Notes under the pieces: model-generated
Databases searched by the model: none
What the model was told of the DNA's origin: nothing
Seen by the model: the letters and a program-made list of their open reading frames with translations, nothing else
In this document: in pieces, positions 4,819-30,086 of the stretch
Position numbering within the stretch: position 1 is the first letter of the stretch
Layout of the letters: the number at the start of each line of letters is the position of its first letter
Translations under genes and position numbers: made by a program
Origin: Nitrospinales bacterium
GTDB lineage: Bacteria > Nitrospinota > Nitrospinia > Nitrospinales > JAJDAT01
Assembly (NCBI GenBank): GCA_046757665.1
Contig: JBHHYO010000030.1
Location: forward strand, 1 to 30,282
Length of the DNA stretch: 30,282 bases
Direction of reading: 5' to 3'

Positions 4819-6597
4819 TCAGGCCGGGCTCAGCATGGCGAGGTTTTCCTCGATGTTTGCCTTTTCGTGATGGCCGAGGTAGAGCAATCCGTCGGACAGC
4901 GAATAATTTTGCGGAAACATCGCCACTTCGCGGCTCAGCATTTCCGACACCTCCCGATAAACCTCGGCGGCCTGGTCTGCCGTGAGGCCGGCGCTGATGT
5001 CATAGGAATATCCCAGGCTCAAATCGTGATGCGGCGGGTTGTAGAGCCGGGTGATGTGCCATTCCGCCGGATTTTTTTCCAGCGGCGTGCCTTTCTCCAG
5101 GTCGAACTGCGAAGGGATGCAGGAGAACCCCGGCGACTCCAGCAACCGCTGATTGTTGAGGACGAAATTCACCGAATCCATGACCTCCTCCCGCGTTTCC
5201 GTGGGAAAACCGACGATCAGGTAAAAGTGCATGGCAATGCCGATACGCAGGCATTCTTCCACCGTTTTGTCGACCACGGCCAGTTCCACGCCCTTCTTCA
5301 TGCAATCGAGAACCCGTTGGTTGTAGGACTCCAGCCCAAAGATCAGTTTTCTCAGTCCCGACCGGTACAGCAGTTCCATGCGGTTTTCCCGTAGCAGGCT
5401 TTTTTCAAACTTCAACTCGCCGGTCCATTGCACCTTCACCCCGGCGTCGATTAACTTGGCGGCGAAGGATTTCAGAAAGTTGATCGGCAGAGCCTCGTCG
5501 GTGAAGAAGAAGTAATTGCAACCGTACTTTTCCTGGAGATTTTTAAAATCGTTGACCACGTTTTCGGCGTAGCGCACGTGGAAATCCATGTGGTCGAACG
5601 GAATGGAGCAAAACGCGCACCGCTCCCAGTAACAGCCGCGGGACCCCATCACCGGCAGAACGCGCTCCGGCGTGAAATATAAATCGAAGGGCATCCCGTC
5701 GAAATCCGGTGTCGGCAGTTCGTTCAGGGCCTCCTTGACGAAGGGCCGGTTGACCTTCACTTGCCCCCTGTCCCGCCAGATCAGGTTGGGGACCTGGGCC
5801 AAATCGCCGCCGCCCCGCAATTCCTGCACCAGCCGCAACAGGGGCGTCTCGCCCTCATGCACGATAAAGCTGTCGACGAACTCGAACAAGGGCGACCCTT
5901 TCTCCAACTGGTCCACCAGCTTCGTGAAAACACTGCCGCCGACGGTGATATGGATGTCCCGGCGATGCGTCTTGACCAGATGCGCCAGCGTCAAGCCGGA
6001 CAAAACCTGTTCGACGGAGGTCACCGAAATCCCGAGAATGTCGATATCCTGCGACAAAATTCCCGGCAGGTAGATTTCCTTGTAAATGTCGTAGAAAAAA
6101 TTTTCGCCGGGGTTTTGAAACGATTCGAGAATCTCCTTTGTCGAGTACGGCGAAAAACGCATACGACTGCCGATGACCGTCAATTGCGACGGGTGGTAAG
6201 GCGCCAGAATATTGTCGAGCCACACATCAATAATCTTCAGGCTCTCCATGTAGCGTTCGACATCATAAAAATCGTCGTTGCGCAGGGACTGTTTGGCCGC
6301 GTCGATTTCATGCGCCAATTGCGGAATGATCTCATCCGCTTCGAGCAGTTTGGCGTATTTTTCGCGTTCGAATTGCGAATGCCGAGGCTTGGAGCCCAGG
6401 GTGTTCAGTTCGGAAAGAATGCGGTCGTAAAGCGGGCGGGCTTTTTCCCACGTGCACAAATGATCCAGAAGCTCGATCGCCAGGTCGCGTTGCACCACAT
6501 CGTCGATCCCATGCTGATGCAGGAAGCCCTTGAGGGCGGGCAGGCTGAGATACGGTTGCGACGGATGCCACGAAGATGGAAAGATCAAATAAACCAT
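4819..6597 (-). CDS. Cobalamin-binding-domain radical SAM protein
   Basis: CxxxCxxC in SRGCYWERCAFC; B12-binding-like segment (ILGISVT...ITVGGS...EGETP); FGLES and IVGFPTET motifs. Confidence 0.92.
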   Translation of the reverse strand: MVYLIFPSSWHPSQPYLSLPALKGFLHQHGIDDVVQRDLAIELLDHLCTWEKARPLYDRILSELNTLGSKPRHSQFEREKYAKLLEADEIIPQLAHEIDAAKQSLRNDDFYDVERYMESLKIIDVWLDNILAPYHPSQLTVIGSRMRFSPYSTKEILESFQNPGENFFYDIYKEIYLPGILSQDIDILGISVTSVEQVLSGLTLAHLVKTHRRDIHITVGGSVFTKLVDQLEKGSPLFEFVDSFIVHEGETPLLRLVQELRGGGDLAQVPNLIWRDRGQVKVNRPFVKEALNELPTPDFDGMPFDLYFTPERVLPVMGSRGCYWERCAFCSIPFDHMDFHVRYAENVVNDFKNLQEKYGCNYFFFTDEALPINFLKSFAAKLIDAGVKVQWTGELKFEKSLLRENRMELLYRSGLRKLIFGLESYNQRVLDCMKKGVELAVVDKTVEECLRIGIAMHFYLIVGFPTETREEVMDSVNFVLNNQRLLESPGFSCIPSQFDLEKGTPLEKNPAEWHITRLYNPPHHDLSLGYSYDISAGLTADQAAEVYREVSEMLSREVAMFPQNYSLSDGLLYLGHHEKANIEENLAMLSPA

Positions 6598-8982: not shown

Positions 8983-9408
8983 TCAAGCGCCCAGAATTTG
9001 CACCCACACCCCCCTTTTGCGGGGCCGGTTGTCGAAATCGCAAAGGATGATCTGTTGCCAGGTTCCCAGCAATAACCGGCCATTCTTGAAAGGCACGGTA
9101 AAGGAAGCGCCCATCAACGCGGCGCGCACATGGGAAAACCCGTTGCCGTCGCCCCAGCGGGCGTCGTGTTCGTAATGCAAATCGACCGGCGCCTGGCGCT
9201 CAATCGCCCGTTTCAAGTCGGCCACGGCGCCGGATTCATATTCAATGGTGGTGATGCCGGCGGTCGAGCCGGGCACGAAAACCGTGGCCACTCCCGCGGA
9301 CAGGTTCGAGTCGCCCACGCTCCGGCAAACGTTTTCCGTGATGTCGAGAATGTCGCCAAAGCCGCGGGTCGCGATATGGAAAGAGTCGGTTTTAACCTGG
9401 ATGCTCAT
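8983..9408 (-). CDS. yjbQ: YjbQ/UPF0047 family protein
   Basis: TAGITTIE, YEHD...GNGFSHVRAALMG and LLLGTWQQI motifs. Confidence 0.93.
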   Translation of the reverse strand: MSIQVKTDSFHIATRGFGDILDITENVCRSVGDSNLSAGVATVFVPGSTAGITTIEYESGAVADLKRAIERQAPVDLHYEHDARWGDGNGFSHVRAALMGASFTVPFKNGRLLLGTWQQIILCDFDNRPRKRGVWVQILGA

Positions 9409-10304
9409 CGGAATTTGCCGAGGTATTTCATTTTGCAGTCGATGAAATCCTTATGGGGGATACGCATGGCCTTGGTGATACGGCGGATTTCCTCGACCTC
9501 CTCATAACCCAGGTCGCCGTCGGCCGCCGAGATTTCGAAAAAGCAGTCCATCAACTTCACTCGGTCCGGATAGGAAACCAGCCGATTGAATTCCGTAACC
9601 ACCTCATAAAAATCGAATCCCCACGCCGTCTGCTCCTCCAAAACGTCAAGGATGATTTCCAATTCCTCATCGGTAAAGGAATAATGCGCGCTTAATATCC
9701 CGCGCAACGCATTTTTTTCTTCGTCGGAAAAGGTTTCGTCCACAAAGGCCACCGACCCCAGCAGGACGCCGAACAGGCAGGCCAGATAAAGCTGGTCCTC
9801 CGACAGGCTGATTTTAGCTTTTTCCCCGTCGGCCCTCAAACCGACTTTATTGAGGACGATGTTCTTGAAATATTTTTGCAACTGCGGTTTGGTTTCGCGG
9901 GCGGGTTTAAAAATAACGCGGGCCAGCACGTTACGGATTTTCCCCAGCGTTTTTTCGGTAAAGGACGTGTCTTCGAGAAGAGCGGTCAGCCGGCGCAACA
10001 AGGCTTGTTCCCGCTCGTGGATTTCCTTATCCGCCCCGGCCATCAATTCCATGGCTTGCAGAAATTCCTTTTTGTCCCCGGGCGCGGTCACTTCGGCCGC
10101 GAATTTGCGAAACAAGTTTTCCTGTTCCTTTTCGGAAAGCGGGGCGCGCAGGTAGGGATTCAACTCCTCAATTTCCTCCGGGGACAGGTTGAACTTCCGG
10201 TAAAAGGATTTCAGGACATTCAGCTCGGACAGGGCAATTTCGCCATCCGCCCAGGCAATGACCGTCAAGATTTTCAGCAAGGTAAGTTTTTTAAAATGAG
10301 ACAT
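9405..10304 (-). CDS. Tandem TerB-like domain protein
   Basis: Two TerB modules (IAWADGEIALSE...ADKEIHERE and VAFVDETFSDEE...ISAADGDLGYEE); 4-nt overlap with yjbQ. Confidence 0.88.
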   Translation of the reverse strand: MSHFKKLTLLKILTVIAWADGEIALSELNVLKSFYRKFNLSPEEIEELNPYLRAPLSEKEQENLFRKFAAEVTAPGDKKEFLQAMELMAGADKEIHEREQALLRRLTALLEDTSFTEKTLGKIRNVLARVIFKPARETKPQLQKYFKNIVLNKVGLRADGEKAKISLSEDQLYLACLFGVLLGSVAFVDETFSDEEKNALRGILSAHYSFTDEELEIILDVLEEQTAWGFDFYEVVTEFNRLVSYPDRVKLMDCFFEISAADGDLGYEEVEEIRRITKAMRIPHKDFIDCKMKYLGKFR

Positions 10305-10511: not shown

Positions 10512-11801
10512 CTATTTAAAATGATCCACCCACAACCGCCCCTTTTTGCCTTTTGAGGTGATCGCGAAAATGTCCAGGAACCCTTTATCATTGATATTGC
10601 CAAAGGTCATTTTATCGAAAGGGATGGAATAAGGAAACCGTTTGAGCGTTTCATCGGAAAATTCCCAATCTCCCTTGCCGACCAGGAAGTGCGCCCCTTT
10701 GCGGCTTAAAATAATGATATCGGGGATTCGGTTTCCATTCGCGTCCAGCAAATACACCTGGTGCGAAGGAAGGTTCGGCAACAGTTTCAGGGATTTTTTT
10801 ACGAAATGGCCCTGGCCGTCATTTTCCAGAAAATACGAGAACTCCTTCGCATAGGCGCGGAATTTCGGATCGACACCGGAGGTGACGACCAAAAGATCGT
10901 TATCTCCATCCAGATCGAAATCCGCCCAATCCGCCGCGGCGCCATGCGCCCGCACCGGCGGCAGGGAAACGCGGGAGGTATCGGAGAACTCGCCCAGGCC
11001 GTTGTTGATCAACAACGCATTCCGGCCTTTTCCATAAACGAGGAAAATGTCCGGCGCATTGTCTCCGTCATAGTCGGCGATGGCGGTTCCGGCAACCCCG
11101 GCCCGTATCGGCGGCAACAGGATAAAGGAAGAGTCCGTAAACCGTCCCCGACCGTTGTTGAGCATGAGCTGGGCCTGATTGACGGCCGGACCGCCCGCCG
11201 GGTTGCGCAGGTTTTTCCCGGTGAACAACAGGTCGAGATCGCCATCGGCGTCAAGGTCGGCCAAATCGACGCGCTCGATTCCGTTATCCAGCGGCGGCAA
11301 GGCGGGAATGCCCTTGCGGTAAAAATACCCCTTCTTATTGTTGAACAGGGACCGGGCGACACTTTTCGTGCCCGCGGTTCCCAGAAGAAGCAGATCGCTT
11401 GCCCCGTCGCCGTTCAAATCTCCGGCGGCGATGAAGTCGATCCGCATATGCCAATCGCGGTTCAATCCGCTGTTCCCGGACGGGGAAAACTTTCCCTCGC
11501 CCTGGTTGATCAACACCTTGATCCTGTTTCTTTGGTTGCGCGCCAGGGAAACCAGAATCAGGTCCGCCTGGGAATCGGCGTTCACGGGAGTCAGCAGGGC
11601 CGTACGTATTCTCGCTGGAATTTTCGGGAAGTACTGGCGCGTCCGGTCAAGATAGCTCTGAGCTTTCGGATCGTACCCCAACAGCGGTTTGTGACTGCAA
11701 TTCGATAAAAAAAGAAGGAAGAGAAAGGAGCAAAAAATCGCGTTAATCAAAAAGCGACCGGGTAATCGGTTCTTTTTCGAGATCGATCTCCATGCCTTCA
11801 T
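10512..11801 (-). CDS. FG-GAP/VCBS-repeat beta-propeller lipoprotein
   Basis: Repeated DxDxDGDxD motifs (GDLNGDGASDL, ADLDADGDLDL, ADYDGDNAPD, ADFDLDGDNDL) and NNGxGxF turns; lipobox-like LSNC. Start uncertain (ATG 11801 or TTG 11750). Confidence 0.88.
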   Translation of the reverse strand: MKAWRSISKKNRLPGRFLINAIFCSFLFLLFLSNCSHKPLLGYDPKAQSYLDRTRQYFPKIPARIRTALLTPVNADSQADLILVSLARNQRNRIKVLINQGEGKFSPSGNSGLNRDWHMRIDFIAAGDLNGDGASDLLLLGTAGTKSVARSLFNNKKGYFYRKGIPALPPLDNGIERVDLADLDADGDLDLLFTGKNLRNPAGGPAVNQAQLMLNNGRGRFTDSSFILLPPIRAGVAGTAIADYDGDNAPDIFLVYGKGRNALLINNGLGEFSDTSRVSLPPVRAHGAAADWADFDLDGDNDLLVVTSGVDPKFRAYAKEFSYFLENDGQGHFVKKSLKLLPNLPSHQVYLLDANGNRIPDIIILSRKGAHFLVGKGDWEFSDETLKRFPYSIPFDKMTFGNINDKGFLDIFAITSKGKKGRLWVDHFK

Positions 11802-12603
11802 AAGCGACCGTACTGTTGGGGAACAGTTGCCGGGTCTCTGCTTCGATTTTCTGCATGAATTTGTCATCGTGGCTGGGATCATGATGGAAAAGAATCAAGT
11901 GTTTGACGTTTGCGGCCTTGGCGATTTTCACGCCTTCCTGCATCGTGCTGTGCCCCCATCCGACACGCGACATTTGCCCGTCCTTTCCATAATATTCACT
12001 GGGGGTGAACTGGCAATCGTAAATCAACACATCAGCCCCGTCCGCCAGGGCCATCAGGTTCTCATCCAACCGGTCATCAAAGTGCTCCGTGTCGGTGGCA
12101 AGCACAATGGATTTGTCCGCCTCGTCGATACGGTAGGCATGACATCGATTGGGATGATTCAGCATGGCCAAACTAACGCGGTAACCATTACCTTCGACCA
12201 CATCTCCGAGCTTGAGATCATGAAAACGGGTGGTGGCGGCCATGATGTCCATGCCCACGGGGAAACACGGAACCGTCATCTGGTTTTTCAGAACATCTTC
12301 AATACTCAGGGGCATGGAGGACCCCCCGTAAATGTCAAATTCGTTGCCTTTTATATAAAGGGGAGTAAAAAAAGGCAGTCCCTGGATATGATCCCAATGC
12401 ACGTGGGAATAAAATATCTTGGCCTTAACGGGCAACTCCTTCATCAGTTGGACGCCGAGGTTGCGTATTCCCGTACCGCTGTCGAAAATAACCAGGTCGT
12501 TGCCGCATCGGAGTTCCAAACAGGTGGTGTTTCCGCCGACGCCCGCCGTGGAGCGGCTACCGGAAGGGACGCTACCCCTGACACCCCAGAATCTAATTTT
12601 CAT
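11743..12603 (-). CDS. Metallo-beta-lactamase-fold hydrolase (RNase Z/phosphodiesterase-like)
   Basis: FWGVRGS, GGNTTC, DSGTG, SHVHWDHIQG, GWGHST and HHDPSH motifs. Confidence 0.93.
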   Translation of the reverse strand: MKIRFWGVRGSVPSGSRSTAGVGGNTTCLELRCGNDLVIFDSGTGIRNLGVQLMKELPVKAKIFYSHVHWDHIQGLPFFTPLYIKGNEFDIYGGSSMPLSIEDVLKNQMTVPCFPVGMDIMAATTRFHDLKLGDVVEGNGYRVSLAMLNHPNRCHAYRIDEADKSIVLATDTEHFDDRLDENLMALADGADVLIYDCQFTPSEYYGKDGQMSRVGWGHSTMQEGVKIAKAANVKHLILFHHDPSHDDKFMQKIEAETRQLFPNSTVAYEGMEIDLEKEPITRSLFD

Positions 12604-12782
12604 CGGTTAACAAGTCCTTTCATACAGCGGCGCGCCAAGCATCGGGATCGCAGTCCACGCCCGCCGGATTCAGGAGTGTGTTTTGACCTCGGAGGAGAGA
12701 TGCAATACCAGAACCGGCAGGGTTCAAAAGAAGAAATATTCTACTAAAAATAGTGGCTGATGAAAACCGATTTCCGAAAAAA

Positions 12783-12839
12783 CCTTCCGACAAGTTCAAG
12801 GGTAGAAAAAACCCGCCATGCCGAGCTTGTCGAGACATG
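12783..12839. repeat. Degenerate REP-like inverted doublet
   Basis: CGACAAGTTC...GAGCTTGTCG inverted pair resembling the CTTCGACAAGCTCAG-type intergenic palindromes, directly after the lipoate ligase stop. Confidence 0.5.
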
Positions 12840-12842
12840 ATT

Positions 12843-13700
12843 CTACATGGCATCCTTGACCTTTAAAAGGACCTTATTCGTTCGGATATCATCATGATCC
12901 ACCGTGTCGAGAAACCGCCGGCGCAGTTCCAGTTCAAAGGCCGTCAGTTCGCCCCTGAACGAGCCTTCGGAAAAGCATTTGGAAAACCCGTCGCGAAACG
13001 CCTTTCGAGCCTCCTCGAACGTGACGGTTCGTCCGCAGATTTCATTCAAGGTCACCGCCGCCCGCTTCAACACCCGCAGGTGAGACCGGCTCGCCTCCGG
13101 GTTTTCAAACCGTAGCAGTGAATTCAATTGTTCCCGGTTCATGTCAATCAACACGGAGCCGTGCTGAAGAAACGCATTGTGCAACCGGCGTTGGGCGCTG
13201 CCGATGAGTTTTCCGTTTCCCACGGCGGTTTCAAACGGACGGCAGACGGCAAAGCACGCCGGACTGCCGGTTTGATCCTGCCGCCCGCCGCGACGGCTCT
13301 GCCTGTTTATGGCGGTCTCCCGGATTCCCAGTTGATCGAGGCCCCGCATCAGGGCATGGGAAATTTTGTAAAACGTTTGCCGAAGACTGCCGGAGAATCT
13401 CGGGTGCCGGATCGGCGCGACAACGCAGTAGGTCAGTTCCGCGTCATGCAAGACGGCACGGCCGCCGGTGGGGCGCCGCACGATGGGGATATTCAAATCG
13501 CGGCAACGTGCCACGTCCACCTGCAACGCCGCGTTTTGCGAATAACCGATGCTCAGCGTCGGTTGTTTCCATCCGTAAAGCCTCAGGGTCGGCGGGGCCT
13601 TGCCCTGGTTGCACGCCTGAAGCACGGCCCGGTCGGTGACCATGTTGAGCACGCCGTCATCCCTTCCTTCTTCAATAATTCTCCAGGGAACGATGGTCAT
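12843..13700 (-). CDS. Lipoate-protein ligase A / octanoyltransferase LipM-like protein
   Basis: NMVTD, PTLRLY, LSIGYSQ, VRRPTGGRAVLH, KLIGSAQ and QHGS motifs. Confidence 0.93.
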   Translation of the reverse strand: MTIVPWRIIEEGRDDGVLNMVTDRAVLQACNQGKAPPTLRLYGWKQPTLSIGYSQNAALQVDVARCRDLNIPIVRRPTGGRAVLHDAELTYCVVAPIRHPRFSGSLRQTFYKISHALMRGLDQLGIRETAINRQSRRGGRQDQTGSPACFAVCRPFETAVGNGKLIGSAQRRLHNAFLQHGSVLIDMNREQLNSLLRFENPEASRSHLRVLKRAAVTLNEICGRTVTFEEARKAFRDGFSKCFSEGSFRGELTAFELELRRRFLDTVDHDDIRTNKVLLKVKDAM

Positions 13701-15136
13701 GCTCCTTCATCAAGTATCTCGAGGGTTCCGGTATCCAAATCGTAAAACGCGCCGACGATTTGCAGTTTTTCCTGGTTGACCCTTTCATTGAGAATGGGCA
13801 TCGATTCCTTTAACTGTTTAACCACGCCGCGGACGTTTTCCCGCGCCACGTTATCGGCAACGTCGCCCGGCCGGTCTTTTGCTTTTTCAATTGCCGGCGC
13901 AAGAGCCTCGACCAGGCTACCGATGTGCCCCTCGGGAGAATTTCCGGACAAGGCGGCATTCACCGCGCCGCATCGCTTGTGGCCCAAAACCACAATCAAT
14001 TCAACCGAGAGGAACTGAACCGAATATTCCAGGCTACCCAAAATCATGTCATTCAGAACGTTCCCCGCCACCTTCAAAACAAACAAATCACCGAGTCCCT
14101 GGTCAAAAATGATTTCAGGCGAAACTCTTGAATCGGCGCAGGCAATCACGGTAGCGAACGGGTTTTGAATTTTGGCGATCTCCCGCCGCCGTTCCAGGGT
14201 TTGATGCGGATGGATACATTTCCCCGTGGTATATCTTTCATTGCCCAGGATCAGCTTTTTCAGGTTTCGGCTCTGCCCGTCAAAACTCATCAATTCGAGT
14301 TTGGCATGAGCCTTCCTCAGGTTTTCCTCCGCCAGTTTTCGTTCGTTAATATCCTCGATAATGGCAACGAAGTTTTTCGGCTGGCCATCCGCGCCGCGAA
14401 CGAGCGACAAGGTTAAATTGACCCAAACTTCCGAACCGTCCTTGCGAAGATAACGCTTTTCCTGGATAAAGTGGTCGATCTCCCCGGCCAGCAACCACTT
14501 GACGTTCACCCTGCTTTCCAGAATATCATCGGGATGGATGATTTCATAAAATGTTTTTTGCAACAGTTCCTCTTTTGTGTAACCCACAATATCGCAAAGT
14601 TTCTGATTCAGCAAAATCCAGCGGCCCTCAAGGTCCAGGTGAGCCATGCCGATAGCGGCTTGATTGAAGGAGGCGCGGAGCTGTTGCGCCTGCACCTTGA
14701 TCTCTTCTTCGGCGGCGGCCTTTTCCCGTTCCAGGGTGATTTTTTCAAAACAGCGGTCCAGGGTGGCAAAAAGTTCCGACGGATTGGTCGGTTTTCTCAG
14801 ATAATCGTAAGCGCCTTCCTTCAAGGCCCGGATGGCGGTGTCAATGGAGCCGAAGCCGGTGATCATAACGCAAAGGATTCCGGGCCGGATTTTTTTGACT
14901 TGAGAAATCAAATCGATGCCGTTGGCGGACCCCAGGCGTATGTCGAGCAAAGCCACCTGGGCATCGAATTGTTTAATCGCCGTCAGAGCCCCTTCTTCAC
15001 TATGCGCCAGGGATGTGGTATACCCTTGCAGTTTCAAAACACCGGCAAGGCTTTCCGCCACATCATGGTCGTCATCAACAATCAAAACGCGGCGGTCGGA
15101 ATCTTTTTTCTCTGAAGTCATGGCATTCTCACTCAT
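13697..15136 (-). CDS. Response regulator: REC + PAS + beta-carbonic anhydrase fusion
   Basis: REC (IVDDD, LLDIRL, ITGFG, LRKP); PAS/PAC (HPDD, RKDGSEVWV, EDINERK); beta-CA (GNERY, CADSRV, GDLFV, AGN, GHKRCGAV, YDLDTG). ATG 15136 overlaps the kinase stop (ATGA). Confidence 0.93.
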   Translation of the reverse strand: MSENAMTSEKKDSDRRVLIVDDDHDVAESLAGVLKLQGYTTSLAHSEEGALTAIKQFDAQVALLDIRLGSANGIDLISQVKKIRPGILCVMITGFGSIDTAIRALKEGAYDYLRKPTNPSELFATLDRCFEKITLEREKAAAEEEIKVQAQQLRASFNQAAIGMAHLDLEGRWILLNQKLCDIVGYTKEELLQKTFYEIIHPDDILESRVNVKWLLAGEIDHFIQEKRYLRKDGSEVWVNLTLSLVRGADGQPKNFVAIIEDINERKLAEENLRKAHAKLELMSFDGQSRNLKKLILGNERYTTGKCIHPHQTLERRREIAKIQNPFATVIACADSRVSPEIIFDQGLGDLFVLKVAGNVLNDMILGSLEYSVQFLSVELIVVLGHKRCGAVNAALSGNSPEGHIGSLVEALAPAIEKAKDRPGDVADNVARENVRGVVKQLKESMPILNERVNQEKLQIVGAFYDLDTGTLEILDEGA

Positions 15137-23885: not shown

Positions 23886-25202
23886 TCAGGCCTTGATGAT
23901 TTTATCGGAGTTAATATTGCGGCAGGCGTTGCGGGTGTCCACGACGATTTTGGAATCGGCGACGATTTTTTCGTAATCGTAGCGCGAATGGTCGGTCAAG
24001 ATCACCGTCAGGTCGAAGTCGGACAGATCGTCGAGAGGCACCTGTTTTTTCCCCACGAACCGCGGATAATCCCTTTTGGCGCCGATTTCCGGGACATACG
24101 GATCGTTATATTCGACGCACGCGCCGAAGCAGGTCAGCATATCCATGATTTTAAAACTGACGGATTCGCGGTCGTCATCGACGTCTTTTTTGTAGGCGAC
24201 GCCCAGGATCAGGATACGACTGCCGTTCAGGCTTTTCCCGGCCCGGTTCAGGCCGGTCAGTATTTTCCGGAAAACGTACTCGGGCATGGAAACGTTGATT
24301 TCGCCCGCCAGTTCGATAAACCGGGTTGGGATATCGTATTCCCTGGCTTTCCAGGCCAGGTAAAACGGGTCGATGGGGATGCAGTGCCCCCCCAGGCCGG
24401 GGCCGGGATAAAAGGGCATGTAACCGAACGGCTTGGTGGCGGCGGCGGCGACCACTTCCCAGACATCGATCCCCATGGCGTCCAGAATAATTTTCATTTC
24501 ATTGACCAGGGCGATGTTGACCGAGCGAAAGATATTTTCCATCAACTTGGTCGCCTCGGCGGTGCGGGTATCGGAAACCGGCACGGTTTTTTTGACGATG
24601 GACCGATAAAGCGCATCGGCGACAGCCAGTTCCTGCGCGGAATCCGCGCCCACCACCTTGGGAATCGTCGCTGTGGCGTACTGTTTGTTGTTCGGGTCCT
24701 CCCGCTCGGGAGAGTACGCGACGAAAAAATCCCGGCCCGCCTGCAACCCGGAGGCAGACTCCAGTTCCGGCGCCAGCACTTCCTGCGTCGTGCCGGGATA
24801 AGTGGTGGACTCCAGCACCACCAACTGGCCCTTGGCCAGGTACGGCGAAACCTGCCGGGCGGTGGAAACGATATAAGTCAGATTGGGAGACCGGTTGCGG
24901 TTCAAGGGTGTCGGCACGCAGATCAAAATGCAATCCCAACCCGAAACCGCGGCAAACTCCGTACCCAGTTCCAATCGGCCGCTTTCGACCAGCGGACGGA
25001 TGGCCTCGTCGGGAATGTGCCTGATATAACTTTGGCCCCTGGACAGCCGGGCGATTTTTTCCGGGTCGAGGTCCAGTCCGGCCACGGGAAACCCCGCCTT
25101 GCCGAACTCCAGCATCAGCGGCAGTCCCACATAGCCCAGCCCGATAACACCGATGCGTGCCTTTTTTTGCTTTATTTTTTCAATCAGCACGTTTTTTTCC
25201 AA
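23886..25202 (-). CDS. Nucleotide-sugar (UDP-GlcNAc-type, WbpA-like) 6-dehydrogenase
   Basis: GLGYVGLP, ICVPTP, LESTTYPGTT, SPEREDP, GGHCIPIDP and DDRES motifs; TTG start. Confidence 0.95.
   Translation of the reverse strand: MEKNVLIEKIKQKKARIGVIGLGYVGLPLMLEFGKAGFPVAGLDLDPEKIARLSRGQSYIRHIPDEAIRPLVESGRLELGTEFAAVSGWDCILICVPTPLNRNRSPNLTYIVSTARQVSPYLAKGQLVVLESTTYPGTTQEVLAPELESASGLQAGRDFFVAYSPEREDPNNKQYATATIPKVVGADSAQELAVADALYRSIVKKTVPVSDTRTAEATKLMENIFRSVNIALVNEMKIILDAMGIDVWEVVAAAATKPFGYMPFYPGPGLGGHCIPIDPFYLAWKAREYDIPTRFIELAGEINVSMPEYVFRKILTGLNRAGKSLNGSRILILGVAYKKDVDDDRESVSFKIMDMLTCFGACVEYNDPYVPEIGAKRDYPRFVGKKQVPLDDLSDFDLTVILTDHSRYDYEKIVADSKIVVDTRNACRNINSDKIIKA

Positions 25203-28421: not shown

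Positions 28422-30086
<1,665 letters not shown>

Follow-up and report, generated by a model that had tools for sequence, protein, structure and literature searches.

A predicted response regulator with a beta-carbonic anhydrase as its putative output domain in a Nitrospinales bacterium

Enzymatic outputs of response regulators include the CheB methylesterase, the GGDEF domains of PleD and WspR, the HD-GYP domain of RpfG and PP2C types, and bacterial carbonic anhydrases (CAs) are controlled by transcription, pH or bicarbonate allostery; to our knowledge, no bacterial CA is under phosphorelay control. The active sites of beta-CAs lie at the dimer interface. One such enzyme, CanB/Rv3588c of Mycobacterium tuberculosis (1YM3, 2A5V), stands alone as a protein of ~200 aa switched by pH. 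A passage of PMC10357428 that cites Covarrubias 2006 describes it as dimeric and mostly inactive at neutral pH but tetrameric and active at pH 8.4. The enzyme is the closest solved relative of a CA domain encoded in the 30,282-nt contig JBHHYO010000030.1 of a Nitrospinales bacterium (assembly GCA_046757665.1), which was analysed over its whole length and is called the window below. The two share the Cys-x-Asp-x-Arg and His-x-x-Cys motifs, but the window CA follows a receiver (REC) domain and a PAS domain in one chain. By its predicted architecture this protein, REC-PAS-CA, belongs to the broad class of enzymatic-output response regulators, with which it shares an N-terminal receiver, an adjacent, presumably cognate kinase gene and a C-terminal enzyme domain, although its putative effector is a CA for a bulk metabolite pair, whereas those of the known regulators act on a signalling molecule or a protein.

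The original prediction for this DNA had claimed an uninterrupted 479-aa open reading frame with a complete receiver, a PAS domain and an intact beta-CA, coupled through an ATGA overlap to a histidine kinase gene, and each of these elements was recovered. The frame is translated without a stop (Table 1). Response_reg (PF00072) matches residues 17-126 (E 2.2e-23; 83 bits, cut-off 30.2; profile positions 1-110 of 111), and the acidic pocket D20-D22, the phospho-acceptor Asp in LLD65IR, T93 (MITG), and Y112 and K115 (YLRKP) were assigned from the spacing of the motifs and from matches with receivers of the NtrC type. The solved receivers closest to it are of the NtrC/NtrX/DctD type (1zit, E 2.6e-21; 4d6x, 3dzd, 5m7n and 1l5y, to 5e-16). 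As in NtrC1, NtrC4, DctD and NtrX (1ny5, 3dzd, 1zit, 1l5y, 4d6x), the receiver leads into a long helix, but the AAA+ and DNA-binding domains of NtrC-type regulators are missing from the window protein. In the PAS region, PAS_3, PAS, PAS_9 and PAS_4 all exceed their cut-offs at residues 152-267 (E 1.5e-16 to 5e-12; PAS_3 60.9 bits, cut-off 25.6), as does TIGR00229 (104.7 bits, cut-off 22.9; E 3.5e-30); the best solved relative, 3ewk, is a weak one (E 1.3e-7), and no cofactor motif was recognised in the domain. Matches in NCBIfam are to NtrX/NtrC/FixJ-like receivers, a PAS S-box and a carbonic anhydrase family protein.

The CA domain is apparently intact. Pro_CA (PF00484) covers residues 328-471 (E 2.4e-42; 145.3 bits, cut-off 25.7; profile positions 1-155 of 156), within which lie the motifs C333-A-D335-S-R337 and H386-K-R-C389. 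In the alignment to 1ym3/2a5v (E 5e-41), CADSR and GHxxCGAV equal the Rv3588c sequence letter for letter, and the zinc ligands C333, H386 and C389 and the D335-R337 dyad are all aligned with their counterparts. Ligands and dyad are likewise kept in a homologue encoded on a 5.7-kb contig of another metagenome collection (L021), where the first motif reads CSDSR.

The L021 homologue, 86% identical to the window protein, is also identical to it in the receiver's acidic pocket, D65, T93, Y112 and K115. The gene order there is that of the window (326-aa protein, kinase, REC-PAS-CA, LplA-like protein), with protein identities of 83, 81, 86 and 84%, respectively. Between the two REC-PAS-CA genes the synonymous divergence (dS) is ~0.55, and the ratio of nonsynonymous to synonymous divergence (dN/dS) is 0.11 in the receiver, 0.13 in the REC-PAS helix, 0.15 in the PAS domain, 0.19 in the joint between PAS and CA and 0.14 in the CA, so that purifying selection has acted on all parts, the joint included, as a single protein. 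Identity in the joint is 84% over 31 residues.

The ATG of the REC-PAS-CA gene overlaps the stop codon of the kinase gene as ATGA, which was read directly in the sequence (...GTATGAGT...). Pfam matched HAMP (349-397), PAS (401-515), HisKA (557-619) and HATPase_c (661-778) in the kinase. Its N-terminal sensor resembles 4HB_MCP_1 below threshold (E 0.013), and 4HB_MCP/CHASE3/TarH entries came up at 0.91-0.92 in the Atlas look-alike search, as leads only. Two other start codons can be considered for REC-PAS-CA: GTG at 15169, upstream and in frame, and Met6 downstream, where the public gene call P0002 (474 aa) begins; the choice is without effect on the architecture. A CA translated separately from the internal Met292 was also considered and is unlikely, because no Shine-Dalgarno sequence is present in the 15 nt upstream.

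An AlphaFold2 model built from a 46-row alignment, which mixes partial homologues and is noisy, has a mean predicted local distance difference test score (pLDDT) of 91.8 and a predicted TM-score (pTM) of 0.57. Its elements are the receiver (16-118), a helix (119-159), the PAS domain (163-262), a second helix (264-282), a break (283-289) and the CA, which begins with the helix 290-303. The PAS domain is modelled as a five-stranded sheet with flanking helices at pLDDT 97-98, and Foldseek places the CA on tetrameric Rv3588c (2a5v) with a TM-score by target of 0.88 and a root-mean-square deviation of 2.0 over 195 columns at 42% identity. A homodimer prediction scored 0.85 against 0.29 for the best of three controls; among proteins of solved structure, 20 of 30 same-chain pairs and 1 of 23 single chains attain the mark, counts that calibrate only roughly here because the alignment was our own. 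Contact agreement among runs was at least 74% and partner pLDDT at least 80. All confident contacts fall in the range 305-470; among them, the zinc-site stretch 334-337 meets 348-355 of the partner chain, which would place the CA active site at the predicted interface. This result indicates likeness to the solved beta-CA dimers rather than proof of dimerisation, and the predictor's memory of those structures may contribute to it.

The joint can be delimited by homology as well. REC-PAS-HisKA-HATPase proteins of ~510 aa (P0016, P0018, P0023; locus L036 of genome G019) match residues 1-275 with 47-51% identity; this homology stops at ~274-275, and homology to stand-alone CAs starts at 288-298. 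The fusion therefore retains ~10 residues of the PAS signalling helix, linked to the N-terminal arm of the CA by about a dozen residues of its own. In the model, ~10-19 residues of the signalling helix are followed by ~7 residues before the N-terminal helix of the CA, and the pLDDT is 76 and then 60 in blocks within 271-290. Like REC-PAS-CA, the REC-PAS-kinase proteins and a REC-PAS paralogue in the window's own genome have the receiver and the long helix, and their PAS domain ends in DIxxRK. They differ in what comes next: the kinases continue into the kinase core and the paralogue stops after PAS, whereas the signalling helix of the window protein runs into the CA. In a related genus, the REC-PAS-HisKA-HATPase proteins come after a CHASE8-HAMP kinase and two single-domain receivers.

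These features are best accounted for, in our view, if the protein is a response regulator of the cytoplasm that has an active, phosphorylation-gated beta-CA as its output, a reading to which we give a probability of roughly 0.55. What the analysis shows is the domain architecture, the integrity of the key residues, their conservation, the operon and the predicted CA-CA dimer; we infer phosphotransfer, the coupling of the domains, which way the switch works and what the kinase and the PAS domain sense. In the mechanism that we propose, the membrane kinase (4HB/CHASE3-like sensor, HAMP, PAS, HisKA, HATPase) would phosphorylate Asp65 of the NtrC-type receiver. In receivers of the NtrC1/DctD type, a coiled coil holds the receiver dimer together, and the rearrangement of this dimer upon phosphorylation releases the output domain for re-assembly. 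Here, the change in the receiver dimer would travel down the 40-residue helix to PAS, the receiver/helix/PAS dimer shifting its register or its partner, and the PAS domain may add a second, ligand-borne input. By way of the signalling-helix remnant and the short joint, the change would next reach the CA at its N-terminal arm. An altered pairing of the CA domains would open or close the zinc site, because the active sites of beta-CAs are shared across a dimer interface and the Rv3588c dimer is inactive and its tetramer active. The cell could in this way turn its sole beta-CA on and off in a matter of seconds and match the interconversion of CO2 and HCO3- to the needs of its enzymes, CO2 being used by the ferredoxin oxidoreductases of a reverse tricarboxylic acid (TCA) cycle and HCO3- by biotin carboxylases.

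A fusion of this kind is rare among the proteins searched. In a whole-protein word-indexed search (7999 candidates scored), the best 120 of 1598 significant matches included three with a receiver and Pro_CA, namely the window protein, P0003 (an 87% relative, the product of L021) and P0070. Searching proteins of 263-839 aa with the CA domain gave a receiver in 2 of the 120 matches listed (the best 120 of 239 significant), and among 1076 longer candidates the single match was a chemoreceptor. From a library of 1.84 billion representatives, whose best 150 matches were mostly multi-PAS proteins and whose scope was REC-PAS-CA proteins of about 300 bits and above, P0003 was the only one of the matches listed to run unbroken across residues 6-476. 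Among 41 related genomes, the three-domain match occurred solely in that of the window. A probe for the joint (residues 230-340) had 32 matches in 28 of the 120 genomes of the phylum: 20 on the CA side only, 11 on the PAS side only and one, in the window, across the joint, so that the fusion was found in none of the other 119. A scan of contigs with the window protein gave six loci, each a receiver-only or PAS-only relative. The rarity of the fusion is confirmed over this range, with a single close relative, P0003, among the matches listed, and the statement in the original prediction that no characterised example was known agrees with a search of the main texts of the literature, which found no description of a CA as response-regulator output. 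The passages retrieved from PMC4395418 and PMC3183031 mention CA as a size marker, and that from PMC7691447 concerns transcriptional control of a CA gene.

P0070, a metagenomic protein of 552 aa, resembles the window protein in that a receiver precedes an intact Pro_CA (CADSR, HSGCG) in one chain. It differs in having no PAS domain, in the two HisKA-like segments without the conserved His that come before its receiver (28% identical to that of the window), and in the clade of its CA. In a FastTree analysis of 160 CA-domain rows, which left out high-scoring segment pairs covering fewer than 150 of the 190 query residues as well as P0002, a sequence identical to the query, P0070 lies in a well-supported set of 14 rows (98) with CAs whose source names are Anabaena and Pseudanabaenaceae. 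Within a group of 12 rows (support 91, which is not decisive), the window CA pairs with P0003 (100), and the other ten rows are CAs from related genomes. Because the P0070 CA sits in a separate, well-supported clade, the receiver-CA fusion probably arose at least twice, and P0070 is probably an independent one; the window CA looks vertically inherited and fused in place. The fusion is rare, confined among the matches listed to two close lineages and one independent analogue, and well conserved where it occurs.

The stand-alone CAs of related genomes offer a further comparison. In two genomes of a related genus (G010, G007), a CA in a 220-aa frame, 48-51% identical to the window CA, has a SulP-STAS transporter gene upstream and a gene for a 394-aa 4HB_MCP/CHASE3-HAMP protein downstream, followed on the opposite strand by REC-HisKA-HATPase. 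In a third genome of that genus (G016), the CA adjoins a 4HB_MCP/CHASE3-HAMP sensor in a shorter locus, and in a genome of another family (G011) the SulP gene overlaps the CA gene. The orthologous CAs of G010, G007 and G011 thus adjoin SulP(-STAS) and fall in the same CA clade as the window CA (support 91), but the window CA has no SulP neighbour: the window holds no SulP gene, and the only SulP match of its genome lies on another contig (C60) among unrelated genes, with no CA beside it. Juxtaposition or fusion of SulP and can is referred to in a passage of PMC6458275 (citing Felce and Saier 2004) as a known theme of bicarbonate transport. The CA-adjacent 4HB_MCP/CHASE3-HAMP proteins are homologous to the sensor and HAMP of the window kinase (25-26% identity over ~344-401 residues, E 4e-33 to 3e-30 in small databases), and in the window's genome such a protein matches two paralogous kinases only (25-26%; E 4e-33 and 1e-27, again in a small database). 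The adjacency in the three related genomes counts in favour of the phosphorylation-gated reading as a separate link from gene context. The recurrence of CA genes beside helical 4HB-type sensors is suggestive, but sensors of the 4HB type are very common. None of the related loci examined, most of which reach only ~1.5 kb on each side, had the 326-aa, LplA-like, metallo-beta-lactamase (MBL)-fold or FG-GAP neighbours next to the CA. Among the best CA matches there are also tandem double beta-CAs with two Pro_CA domains in 437-543 aa (P0004-P0013, P0019, P0058, P0144, P0157, P0270), some with N-termini that resemble signal peptides.

In the window's genome assembly (2.97 Mb in 160 contigs, 97.6% complete), the REC-PAS-CA gene is the sole Pro_CA match, and the search gave no alpha-CA. 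A gamma-CA-like hexapeptide protein of 167 aa is encoded on contig C31 (L031, 292-795, +) and scores 216 bits with NF050158, below the cut-off of 250; given this gene, the genome may have a CA besides the fusion, which is its only beta-CA. The same contig carries one gene for a 2-oxoacid:ferredoxin oxidoreductase. The genome encodes an ATP-citrate-lyase citrate-binding domain, three 2-oxoacid:ferredoxin oxidoreductase alpha domains and one pyruvate-carboxylase/oxaloacetate-decarboxylase subunit, a gene set consistent with autotrophic growth by the reverse TCA cycle and with a need for CO2 as well as HCO3-. The suggestion that the protein serves an autotroph using CO2- and HCO3--dependent carboxylases is therefore plausible as to context from the reverse-TCA-type genes, and RuBisCO, CdhC and PEP carboxylase were not found in the genome search.

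Several observations weigh against a phosphorylation-gated CA output, and some of them point to a role for the CA as an input, already raised in the original prediction as a CO2/bicarbonate sensor, in which binding or turnover of CO2/HCO3- would alter the phosphorylation or partner binding of REC-PAS. On this view signalling proper would be done by REC-PAS, which could serve as a phosphate sink, for instance, or as a protein-protein switch like the paralogue that has no CA. The paralogue belongs to a second module in the same genome (contig C2; L020, 1431-8865), made up of a 320-aa protein (64% identity), a 788-aa HAMP-PAS kinase (60%) and a 270-aa REC-PAS (L020:4758-5570; 45%) that is ATGA-coupled to its own kinase, stops right after DIADRKQA and has no output domain; with such a paralogue at hand, the REC-PAS unit can evidently signal alone. 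A CA from a neighbouring clade also stands at the sensory end, N-terminal to the sensor module, of two chemoreceptors known from metagenomes: P0354 (830 aa; Pro_CA 81-227, MCPsignal 588-744), whose CA would be periplasmic because a signal-peptide-like segment stands at its start, and P0366 (976 aa; Pro_CA 82-230, 4HB_MCP 332-507, HAMP, MCPsignal). Their domain order suggests a possible design for CO2/bicarbonate chemoreceptors. Intact catalytic residues would likewise be required in a sensor that binds CO2/HCO3-, the gamma-CA-like protein may supply the housekeeping CA activity, and the fusion, being restricted to two close lineages, could be young and dispensable. Nor was it predicted with confidence how REC, PAS and CA are placed relative to one another (pTM 0.57, and no confident REC or PAS contacts in the homodimer), and the break at 283-289 (pLDDT ~60), if flexible, would transmit force poorly. 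An input role is nevertheless unlikely, as a domain C-terminal to a receiver is normally the effector in response regulators, the CA is the genome's only beta-CA, so that a sensory role would leave the gamma-CA-like protein alone for catalysis, and the CA groups with stand-alone CAs, two of them beside SulP transporters, which is an enzymatic context (support 91, not decisive).

An alternative that keeps the CA as enzyme is a passive fusion, in which a constitutively active CA would be co-expressed or co-localised with REC-PAS and regulated, in the absence of allostery, by transcription or by localisation near the kinase. The low-confidence break at the joint and the lack of confident inter-domain contacts would suit such an arrangement, and CAs of this clade are often joined to other, unrelated domains (among the best 120 of 239 matches, to SulP, an iron permease, LysM, zinc ribbons and DUF6805). 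Yet the joint is as constrained as the domains that flank it, and the stretch of signalling helix retained directly before the CA arm leaves only the few residues given above between the two helices, so that we consider a purely passive fusion improbable. If the coupling should not be real, the protein would still be a clear case from nature of a domain recently added to a REC-PAS regulator that had no output.

That the gene is an assembly chimera or a frameshifted pair, a fair question for a metagenome-assembled contig although nothing else was found in its favour, can be dismissed as most improbable, because Logan contigs from two runs each span 13400-15600, and with it the PAS-CA junction, unbroken and with zero differences (word depth 16 and 13), L021 holds the same uninterrupted frame under purifying selection, and P0003 has the same architecture. 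The two runs represent two samples of one hydrothermal vent metagenome study, which is a possible source of the window DNA, and are not fully independent. Another run, X5, gave no contig here, from which no absence follows. L021 is the weightier evidence that the gene is real and not an artefact of assembly.

Beyond the gating of the CA by phosphorylation, a wider proposal can be made, tentatively and at somewhat less than even odds. The module would be a two-component system with inorganic-carbon chemistry as its direct output, in which a 4HB/CHASE3-type sensor reports an inorganic-carbon or pH-related signal and gates the only beta-CA of the cell, with the PAS domain as second input. If this is true, it would be the first signal-switched bacterial CA, and it would suggest that a sensor family is devoted to CO2/bicarbonate, because CA genes adjoin homologous or similar sensors in three separate arrangements, as neighbours in three related genomes, in the kinase-to-REC-PAS-CA order here and in the CA-4HB-MCP fusions elsewhere. 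Uncontrolled cytosolic CA can harm cells that accumulate bicarbonate, as in cyanobacterial carbon-concentrating mechanisms, and for this reason a fast CA switch would suit a vent autotroph in steep gradients of CO2 and pH. Real coupling would make REC-PAS-CA a new output class of response regulators, a compact model for a coiled-coil signal that reaches an oligomeric metalloenzyme, and a candidate inorganic-carbon sensor, possibly a part for engineering switchable CO2 hydration.

Table 1. Features of the REC-PAS-CA gene and of its module in the window.
Feature	Position	Strand	Residues and remarks
REC-PAS-beta-CA gene	13697..15136	(-)	single stop-free open reading frame, 479 aa plus stop
Receiver domain	14759..15088	(-)	17-126; Asp65 codon 14942-14944
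Long helix	14660..14782	(-)	119-159; receiver alpha-5 into PAS N-cap; AlphaFold2, block pLDDT 91-96
PAS domain	14333..14683	(-)	152-268, ending in DINERK
Joint	14240..14332	(-)	269-299; PAS signalling-helix remnant 264-282, break 283-289, CA N-terminal helix 290-303
Beta-carbonic anhydrase domain	13700..14239	(-)	300-479
CA codons	Cys333 14138-14140; Asp335 14132-14134; Arg337 14126-14128; His386 13979-13981; Cys389 13970-13972	(-)	
326-aa protein	17497..18477	(-)	first gene of the module; hydrophobic N-terminus; ends 9 bp upstream of kinase gene
Sensor histidine kinase, 784 aa	15133..17487	(-)	transmembrane segment, helical extracytoplasmic sensor, transmembrane segment, HAMP, PAS, HisKA, HATPase_c
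LplA/LipB-type lipoate-protein ligase catalytic-domain protein, 285 aa	12843..13700	(-)	Pfam LplA-B_cat, E 8.4e-35

The 326-aa protein of the module gave no match in Pfam and NCBIfam searches, and the Atlas look-alike search returned hypothetical clusters without names, as a lead only. In all three settings, the window, the paralogous module and L021, the gene for it or its counterpart immediately precedes that of the kinase, and the protein may be an accessory of the sensor. Downstream, the start of the LplA-like gene overlaps the stop codon of REC-PAS-CA in a second ATGA, also read in the sequence; in L021 the LplA-like gene occupies the same position after a 66-nt gap, its identity being measured over 117 residues. 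In a scan of 12300-19000, terminator-like sites numbered 9 against 10.6 expected from shuffled sequences, hence no excess, and promoter-like sites 8 against 3.1 expected, none of them informative on the operon.

The paralogous REC-PAS gene is followed by one for a 1053-aa protein with Pyr_redox_3, two cNMP-binding domains and 4Fe-4S ferredoxin domains. In the window, an MBL-fold gene (11743-12603, -) lies 239 bp beyond the LplA-like gene. A gene for a helix-turn-helix (HTH) plus S24 peptidase protein of the LexA/CI-like kind (1662-2399, +) and one for a phage CI-repressor HTH protein (18901-19290, +) are possible mobile-element remnants flanking the region, and the GC content is low (0.43) in the segment 1001-2000. 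Elsewhere the contig encodes a B12-binding radical SAM protein (4819-6597, -), a TerB-domain protein (9405-10304, -), a glycosylation cluster (20753-25202, -) with a PMT-type glycosyltransferase, a DegT aminotransferase bearing an N-terminal extension and a UDP-sugar dehydrogenase, and GroEL (28437-30086, +).

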